64,000 nucleotides of DNA from the NCBI RefSeq assembly GCF_051903065.1, contig NZ_CP178438.1. One strand, written 5' to 3'. A model generated the notes under the pieces. That model was not told the origin of the DNA and did no database searches. It saw nothing but the letters and a program-made list of their open reading frames with translations. Source of the DNA: Escherichia coli (GTDB lineage Bacteria; Pseudomonadota; Gammaproteobacteria; Enterobacterales; Enterobacteriaceae). This document shows, in pieces, positions 34,444 through 35,406 of this stretch; within the stretch, counting starts at the first letter, position 1, and the number at the start of each line of letters is the position of its first letter. A program made the position numbers and the translations under genes.

Positions 34444-34466
34444 ATTAAGGATGTTGTAACTAAAGT
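34444..34466 (+). other. replication terminus site TerB (Tus-binding, overlapping the tus promoter)
   Basis: attaaggatgttgtaactaaagt contains the conserved Ter core GTTGTAAC and lies 10 bp upstream of the tus ATG. Confidence 0.85.
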
Positions 34467-34476
34467 GGTTAATATT

Positions 34477-35406
34477 ATGGCGCGTTACGATCTCGTAGAC
34501 CGACTCAACACTACTTTTCGCCAGATGGAACAAGAGCTGGCTGCATTTGCCGCTCATCTTGAGCAACACAAGCTATTGGTTGCCCGCGTGTTCTCTTTGC
34601 CGGAGGTAAAAAAAGAGGATGAGCATAATCCGATTAATCGTATTGAGGTGAAACAACATCTCGGCAACGACGCGCAGTCGCTGGCGTTGCGTCATTTCCG
34701 CCATTTATTTATTCAACAACAGTCCGAAAATCGCAGCAGCAAAGCCGCTGTCCGTCTGCCTGGCGTGTTGTGTTACCAGGTCGATAACCTTTCGCAAGCA
34801 GCGTTGGTCAGTCATATTCAGCACATCAATAAACTCAAGACCACGTTCGAGCGTATCGTCACGGTTGAATCAGAACTCCCCACCGCGGCACGTTTTGAAT
34901 GGGTGCATCGTCATTTGCCGGGGCTGATCACCCTTAATGCTTACCGCACGCTCACCGTTCTGCACGATCCCGCCACTTTACGCTTTGGTTGGGCTAATAA
35001 ACATATCATTAAGAATTTGCATCGTGATGAAGTCCTGGCACAGCTGGAAAAAAGCCTGAAATCACCACGCAGTGTCGCACCGTGGACGCGCGAGGAGTGG
35101 CAAAGAAAACTGGAGCGAGAGTATCAGGATATCGCTGCCCTGCCACAGAATGCGAAGTTAAAAATCAAACGTCCGGTGAAGGTGCAGCCGATTGCCCGCG
35201 TCTGGTACAAAGGAGATCAAAAACAAGTGCAACACGCCTGCCCTACACCGCTGATTGCACTGATTAATCGGGATAATGGTGCGGACGTGCCGGACGTTGG
35301 TGAGTTGTTAAATTACGATGCCGACAATGTGCAGCATCGTTATAAACCTCAGGCGCAGCCGCTTCGTTTGATCATTCCACGGCTGCACCTGTATGTTGCA
35401 GATTAA
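34477..35406 (+). CDS. tus: DNA replication terminus site-binding protein
   Basis: Start at [24 protein letters not shown]; 309 aa. Confidence 0.95.

Follow-up and report, generated by a model that had tools for sequence, protein, structure and literature searches.

The TerB terminator beside tus in an Escherichia coli chromosome: a natural T2/G7 allele in the tus promoter region

The TerB site of Escherichia coli K-12 has been known since 1991 to combine two roles, as a barrier to replication forks and as the operator of tus, and the finding described here is in that sense a textbook feature. In K-12, TerB overlaps the tus promoter (PMC8347550), is separated from tus by 10 bp, and serves as the site in its own promoter through which tus is autoregulated (PMC8707476), the original reports of autoregulation being Roecklein (1991), Roecklein and Kuempel (1992) and Natarajan (1991), as cited in PMC8347550, PMC8707476 and PMC10331603. 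Binding and arrest at this site have been documented by ChIP-seq, ectopic insertion and 2-D gels (PMC8707476, PMC10331603), with 430x coverage at TerB in Tus-GFP ChIP-seq (PMC8707476) and with fork pausing at terB in wild-type cells (PMC10331603). Likewise, work published in 2021 had already described TerB as conserved among the phylogroups of E. coli and in Enterobacterales.

We analysed a 64-kb stretch of an E. coli chromosome, hereafter the window, in which a TerB site had been predicted from the sequence; the features discussed are collected in Table 1. The predicted identity was borne out by the position of the site between rstB and tus and by its column-for-column alignment with K-12 TerB (NC_000913.3 1684226–1684248, AATAAGTATGTTGTAACTAAAGT), from which it departs by two substitutions, A>T at position 2 and T>G at position 7 (21/23 identical). 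The K-12 site occupies the orthologous rstB–tus position on the same strand relative to tus, and it shares with the window the 10-nt distance to the ATG, the neighbouring promoter elements and every core and lock base; apart from positions 2 and 7, it differs from the window by three SNPs in the 75-nt intergenic region, located outside the conserved blocks. We regard the element, with very high confidence, as the chromosomal TerB of this strain, a natural T2/G7 allele that would play both known TerB roles.

Table 1. Coordinates of the features in the window, with the basis of each assignment or a remark.
Feature	Position	Strand	Basis or remark
TerB, 23-bp Tus-binding replication terminator	34444–34466	+	ATTAAGGATGTTGTAACTAAAGT; matrix score and K-12 alignment
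TerB core positions 8–18	34451–34461	+	Core definition: PMC8347550, Fig. 3 legend
TerB lock-determining bases	A5 = 34448, G6 = 34449, T9 = 34452	+	
Ter-to-ATG spacer, 10 nt	34467–34476	+	ggttaatatt
tus, 309-aa DNA replication terminus site-binding protein	34477–35406	+	Pfam and PDB match, RefSeq annotation
rstB, sensor kinase	33100–34401	+	Upstream neighbour, transcribed towards TerB; marks the orthologous intergenic position
Predicted tus -35 hexamer, TGGTCA	34416–34421	+	4/6 to TTGACA; conservation, assignment inferred
Predicted extended -10, TGcTATAAA	34436–34444 (TG 34436–34437; TATAAA 34439–34444)	+	Conservation
DicF sRNA	807–858		Rfam RF00039, 76.7 bits
IS1 (InsA/InsB ORFs 1072–1769)	~1057–1824	-	Joins the prophage remnant to the integrase remnant
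Integrase remnant ORF, 264 aa	2134–2928	+	Reference counterpart is a gene of 1,281 bp

The site was scored with a position weight matrix built from TerA–J, which gave it 31.1 bits; the second-ranked position reached 13.4 bits, and the window averaged -31 (sd 9). Published sequences confirmed TerA and TerB as entered in the matrix, and the K-12 genome confirmed TerB and TerC, the remaining inputs being TerD–J. Using K-12 TerB as a query with up to three mismatches, one match was obtained in the window and none in 100 shuffles, and the sole exact match of the core pattern GNRNGTTGTAACKA in the window was the TerB site.

The original prediction had quoted a 23-mer, attaaggatgttgtaactaaagt, which was found on the + strand exactly at the TerB coordinates, and had described a conserved core within it. 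Positions 6 and 8–18 constitute the conserved core of Ter sites, positions 1–5, 7 and 19–23 being variable (Goodall et al., 2021; PMC8347550). When ATTAAGGATGTTGTAACTAAAGT was compared with G6 and ATGTTGTAACT at positions 8–18, no mismatch was found, and alignment with TerA–J revealed no change at an invariant position; the lock determinants A5, G6 and T9 are all retained. The claim of a conserved core held for the full element, which stands well above chance, but not for the 8-mer GTTGTAAC taken alone: the latter has three matches in the window where 1.62 are expected, which is not above chance, as 23 of 100 shuffles reach three or more.

The chance frequency of this 8-mer, together with the existence in E. 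coli of the pseudo-Ter sites K, L, Y, Z, F and H (PMC8707476), is what could be adduced for a fortuitous resemblance or a decayed pseudo-Ter devoid of Tus binding. We give that reading no weight at all, considering the 21/23 match to TerB with zero core mismatches, as opposed to none in 100 shuffles, the orthologous place beside tus, the invariance of the core across genera, and the two or more core mismatches in all other Ter-like positions of the window. Apart from TerB, the 64 kb contain no credible Ter.

The other Ter-like positions were all rejected, with at least two core mismatches and scores of at most 13.4 bits; they include 10033–10055 (-), 54335–54357 (+) and 54583–54605 (+), the last lying across the blr start codon, with four core mismatches. 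The best-scoring decoy (13.4 bits) carries G6>A and T18>C. No feature is annotated between rstB and tus in the RefSeq records of K-12 (NC_000913.3) and of the closest strain, and an Rfam scan of the whole window returned nothing overlapping TerB, its sole match being DicF. Annotating TerB is useful, given that RefSeq/PGAP records leave Ter sites unmarked.

The gene downstream is tus, as had been proposed. Its product matches Pfam PF05472 over its full length (456 bits) and is identical at 305 of 309 residues to the chain in PDB 1ECR, 2EWJ, 2I05 and 2I06, the only substitutions being I23A, L53I, H126R and G268D. The pocket that receives C6 is reportedly lined by I79, F140, H144 and G149, with R198 also mentioned (work of Mulcair in 2006 and Elshenawy in 2015); none of the four substitutions falls on the pocket residues or on R198. 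Judged from its predicted product, the cognate Tus is intact in the same genome. The RefSeq annotation of a strain identical across the locus starts tus at the same ATG (34477–34479), and the interval 34444–34479 comprises Ter, the spacer and this start codon. The predicted distance of 10 bp between TerB and the tus start codon proved exact. The weak ribosome-binding region of tus lies within the spacer and Ter positions 20–23. A longer ORF with a GTG start at 34465, inside Ter, was rejected, as the ATG at 34477 matches both RefSeq and the 309-aa crystallised protein; the GTG-initiated ORF is a mechanical artefact of the ORF listing.

Location of TerB in the tus promoter and autoregulation through it, also part of the original prediction, are consistent with the K-12 literature and with the footprint of a putative -35, an extended -10 and Ter. 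The last base of the predicted -10 hexamer is Ter position 1, and transcription of tus is predicted to start at about 34450–34452, inside Ter. A consensus scan of 34250–35600 found no sigma-70 promoter; the predicted tus promoter is missing from it because the rule demands a T at position 6 of the -10 hexamer, where TATAAA fails. The promoter elements were read by eye and then tested by comparison with Citrobacter, the comparison set comprising eight E. coli and three Citrobacter sequences; we infer the assignment from conservation in this set and from the K-12 literature.

In the three Citrobacter species, Tus is 83–85% identical and the rstB-tus-fumC synteny is kept, with intergenic DNA that has diverged almost everywhere outside TGGTCA, GTGnTATA and Ter positions 5–20. 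GTGnTATA is unchanged across the E. coli and Citrobacter set, and the only invariant features of the eight E. coli and three Citrobacter intergenic regions are TGGTCA, the 17-nt distance, TGnTATA and Ter positions 5–20. The spacer between -35 and -10 is 17 nt long without exception, its sequence being unrelated in Citrobacter. In C. koseri (locus L004, 1395–1524), an insertion of about 22 nt separates Ter from the tus start, with the -35/-10/Ter spacing unchanged; because of these extra nucleotides, the constrained spacing is that from -10 to Ter and not that from Ter to the ATG. The 10-bp gap is thus true of the window but is not a conserved spacing. The layout of the conserved blocks is the one predicted if bound Tus blocks RNA polymerase, and a promoter with an operator adjoining it would leave such a footprint.

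Since a terminator scan of 34250–35600 detected no terminator-like site between the rstB stop (34401) and Ter, read-through transcription from rstAB could reach Ter, where it would meet the non-permissive face. Mohanty, Sahoo and Bastia reportedly found in 1996 that the Tus–Ter complex stops RNA polymerase with the polarity that it shows towards forks; if that applies, bound Tus could also insulate tus from the read-through. At 34398–34403, a C>T change relative to K-12 completes a perfect TTGACA hexamer that shares bases with the rstB stop codon; it is probably no promoter, because no -10-like hexamer lies 16–18 nt downstream.

As to polarity, the + strand of K-12 carries TerB and TerC in 5'-to-3' orientation, and both arrest clockwise forks (PMC8707476), so that the non-permissive face is the side of position 1 and G6. 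In the window, position 1 of TerB faces low coordinates, towards rstB, and the site would block forks travelling from rstB to tus and let the resident fork pass. That the resident fork runs from right to left is shown by the GC skew of the + strand, which is negative in 12 of 16 bins of 4 kb and falls cumulatively from 0 to about -0.4. Skew, strand and K-12 synteny agree, and the orientation of TerB fits a fork trap that lies past the terminus for the opposing fork. The KOPS sites in the window, two in number, both on the - strand and fewer than expected by chance, are too few to serve as a direction marker.

Placement of the window in the terminus region, which the original prediction had derived from TerB, was upheld by its colinearity with K-12, by a matS site and by the mostly negative skew. 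The gene order (rspAB-ynf-pntAB-rstAB-tus-fumC-fumA-manA-uid-mal-add-rsx-nth) is that of the K-12 1.64–1.71 Mb region. A perfect matS consensus, GTGACAGTGTCAC, occurs at 54049–54061 (1 versus 0.03 expected) and, as a MatP-binding marker, independently marks the Ter macrodomain. By analogy with K-12, the window would belong to the left replichore, on its terminus side and some 75 kb past TerC. The dif site is absent from the 64-kb window, as expected, its distance in K-12 being roughly 95 kb. Recognising TerB gives the window its chromosomal place and replication polarity, and provides context for the Qin-type prophage remnant and the IS1 junction.

This Qin-type remnant (ydfB/ydfC/dicB region), together with the IS1 and the integrase remnant to which it is joined, lies within positions 1–2928 of the window. 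The full prophage/IS1/integrase junction is shared by only 23CRST027 and 23CRST031 among 5,426 genomes. Strain ECNB21-M121 is otherwise near-identical, being colinear with window positions 1825–64000 at 99.98% identity, and carries an intact integrase, excisionase and exonuclease at the place of the junction. Towards the other end of the window, rsxC contains an internal tandem array (~58621–59237) with repeats of roughly 96 bp, which showed up, on mapping of the window to the reference, as offset self-matches of 92–93% identity.

Within the species, the rstB–tus locus was found as a single copy in 5,423 of 5,426 complete E. coli genomes with a 401-bp query across the site. Short queries, whose counts are lower bounds that miss about 600 genomes (alleles such as that of ST131 leave no 28-nt exact seed), placed the identical 48-bp T2/G7 allele in at least 1,255 of the 5,426, O157:H7 strains included, and the K-12 allele in at least 2,329. 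Four TerB alleles were present among the divergent lineages sampled: A2/T7 in K-12; T2/G7 in the window and in strain 2014C-4423; A2/G7 in ST131 EC958, ETEC4070 and STE15; and an allele with one additional A in the 5' arm (…TATAAAATAAAGTATGTTG…) in Z142-4 and E597. The additional A puts one more base pair between the conserved -10 element and the Ter core, and EC958 has a further G>A in the Ter-ATG spacer. G6 and positions 8–23 are unchanged in all four sampled alleles.

The two substitutions of T2/G7 lie in the 5', non-permissive arm near G6, and the alleles segregate at high frequency, as the counts above and the additional A2/G7 and +1A forms indicate. It might therefore be argued that T2/G7 is functionally shifted, with altered Tus affinity or lock kinetics changing the autoregulatory set-point, the Tus level and the strength of the trap. 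We see next to no chance of this. Position 7 tolerates change with little effect and positions 1–5 are not contacted (PMC8347550), and across phylogroups TerB accumulates 1–2 SNPs per 23 bp without inferred loss of function (PMC10331603). Moreover, K-12 TerC (NC_000913.3 1609157–1609179, ATATAGGATGTTGTAACTAATAT), a high-affinity, lock-forming site, itself carries T2 and G7; it belongs to the same polarity class, blocking clockwise forks, and is identical to the window TerB at positions 5–20 and at 19 of 23 positions overall, the differences falling at positions 3, 4, 21 and 22. The T2/G7 allele is thus expected, by analogy, to behave like the K-12 allele. That the segregating alleles are not neutral, and tune Tus–TerB residence time or operator occupancy, we likewise hold to be very unlikely; if it were true, the steady-state Tus level and the stringency of the fork trap would differ between lineages.

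The mechanism proposed for the locus draws on this analysis for the sequence, core, Tus, position, orientation relative to the skew and promoter/operator layout, and on the K-12 literature for Tus binding, lock formation, fork arrest and autorepression. A Tus monomer would bind the asymmetric 23-bp site, and a replisome arriving from the left, that is, a clockwise fork past TerC, would meet its non-permissive face. Unwinding by DnaB would free C6, the base paired with the G at 34449; this C6 would dock in the cytosine pocket of Tus and form the lock that stops the fork, and the resident fork from the right would meet the permissive face and displace Tus. The same bound Tus would lie over the last part of the -10 element and over the predicted tus start, excluding RNA polymerase, and tus transcription would fall as Tus accumulates (negative autoregulation). 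Lock or arrest is lost upon change at position 5 (TerF/H), at G/C6 or at T/A9 (TerI/J), TerF/H being non-locking and TerI/J weak (PMC8707476). As far as sequence can indicate, the window site bears every hallmark of a lock-competent Ter, and of TerB in particular.

In K-12, the innermost, primary and most-used arrest site is TerC, situated between yneE and uxaB, not beside tus, and without part in tus regulation; by analogy, the window TerB would come second behind it. This arrangement, a 'type II' trap in which the Ter beside tus is not the innermost, raises the alternative that TerB is essentially the tus operator only, its fork arrest remaining latent because TerC, outside the window, stops forks. 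According to Toft (2021), TerB most likely comes into use only after a fork has run past TerC while the latter is unbound, and the conserved spacing from -10 to Ter shows selection on the operator role. Yet pausing at terB is among the highest in wild-type K-12 (Duggin and Bell, 2009, summarised in PMC10331603), and all lock positions (A5, G6, T9 and core 8–18) are kept in the window, including some not needed for blocking RNA polymerase. We judge an operator-only TerB extremely unlikely, and it differs in degree, not in kind, from the preferred explanation of a fork barrier that also serves as the tus operator.

Beyond E. coli, the closest counterparts of this arrangement are the Ter1 sites of Salmonella, Edwardsiella, Dickeya, Proteus and Yersinia, whose core, with G/C(6), is placed just upstream of tus (Toft, 2021). 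In the 'type I' traps described there outside Enterobacteriaceae, the tus-adjacent site is the innermost barrier, unlike in E. coli. The 'vicinal' Ter1 of Citrobacter has the same layout as the window, with the same -35, 17-nt spacer, extended -10 and Ter.

The RTP protein of Bacillus subtilis is a winged-helix dimer that binds cooperatively and has a fold unrelated to that of Tus. The B. subtilis Ter DNA site is also unrelated to E. coli TerB and does not belong to the same family. In the RTP/Ter system, as in the locus described here, the gene for the terminator protein, rtp, lies beside a terminator site, and it is autoregulated (Ahn et al., 1993, as listed in PMC10331603).
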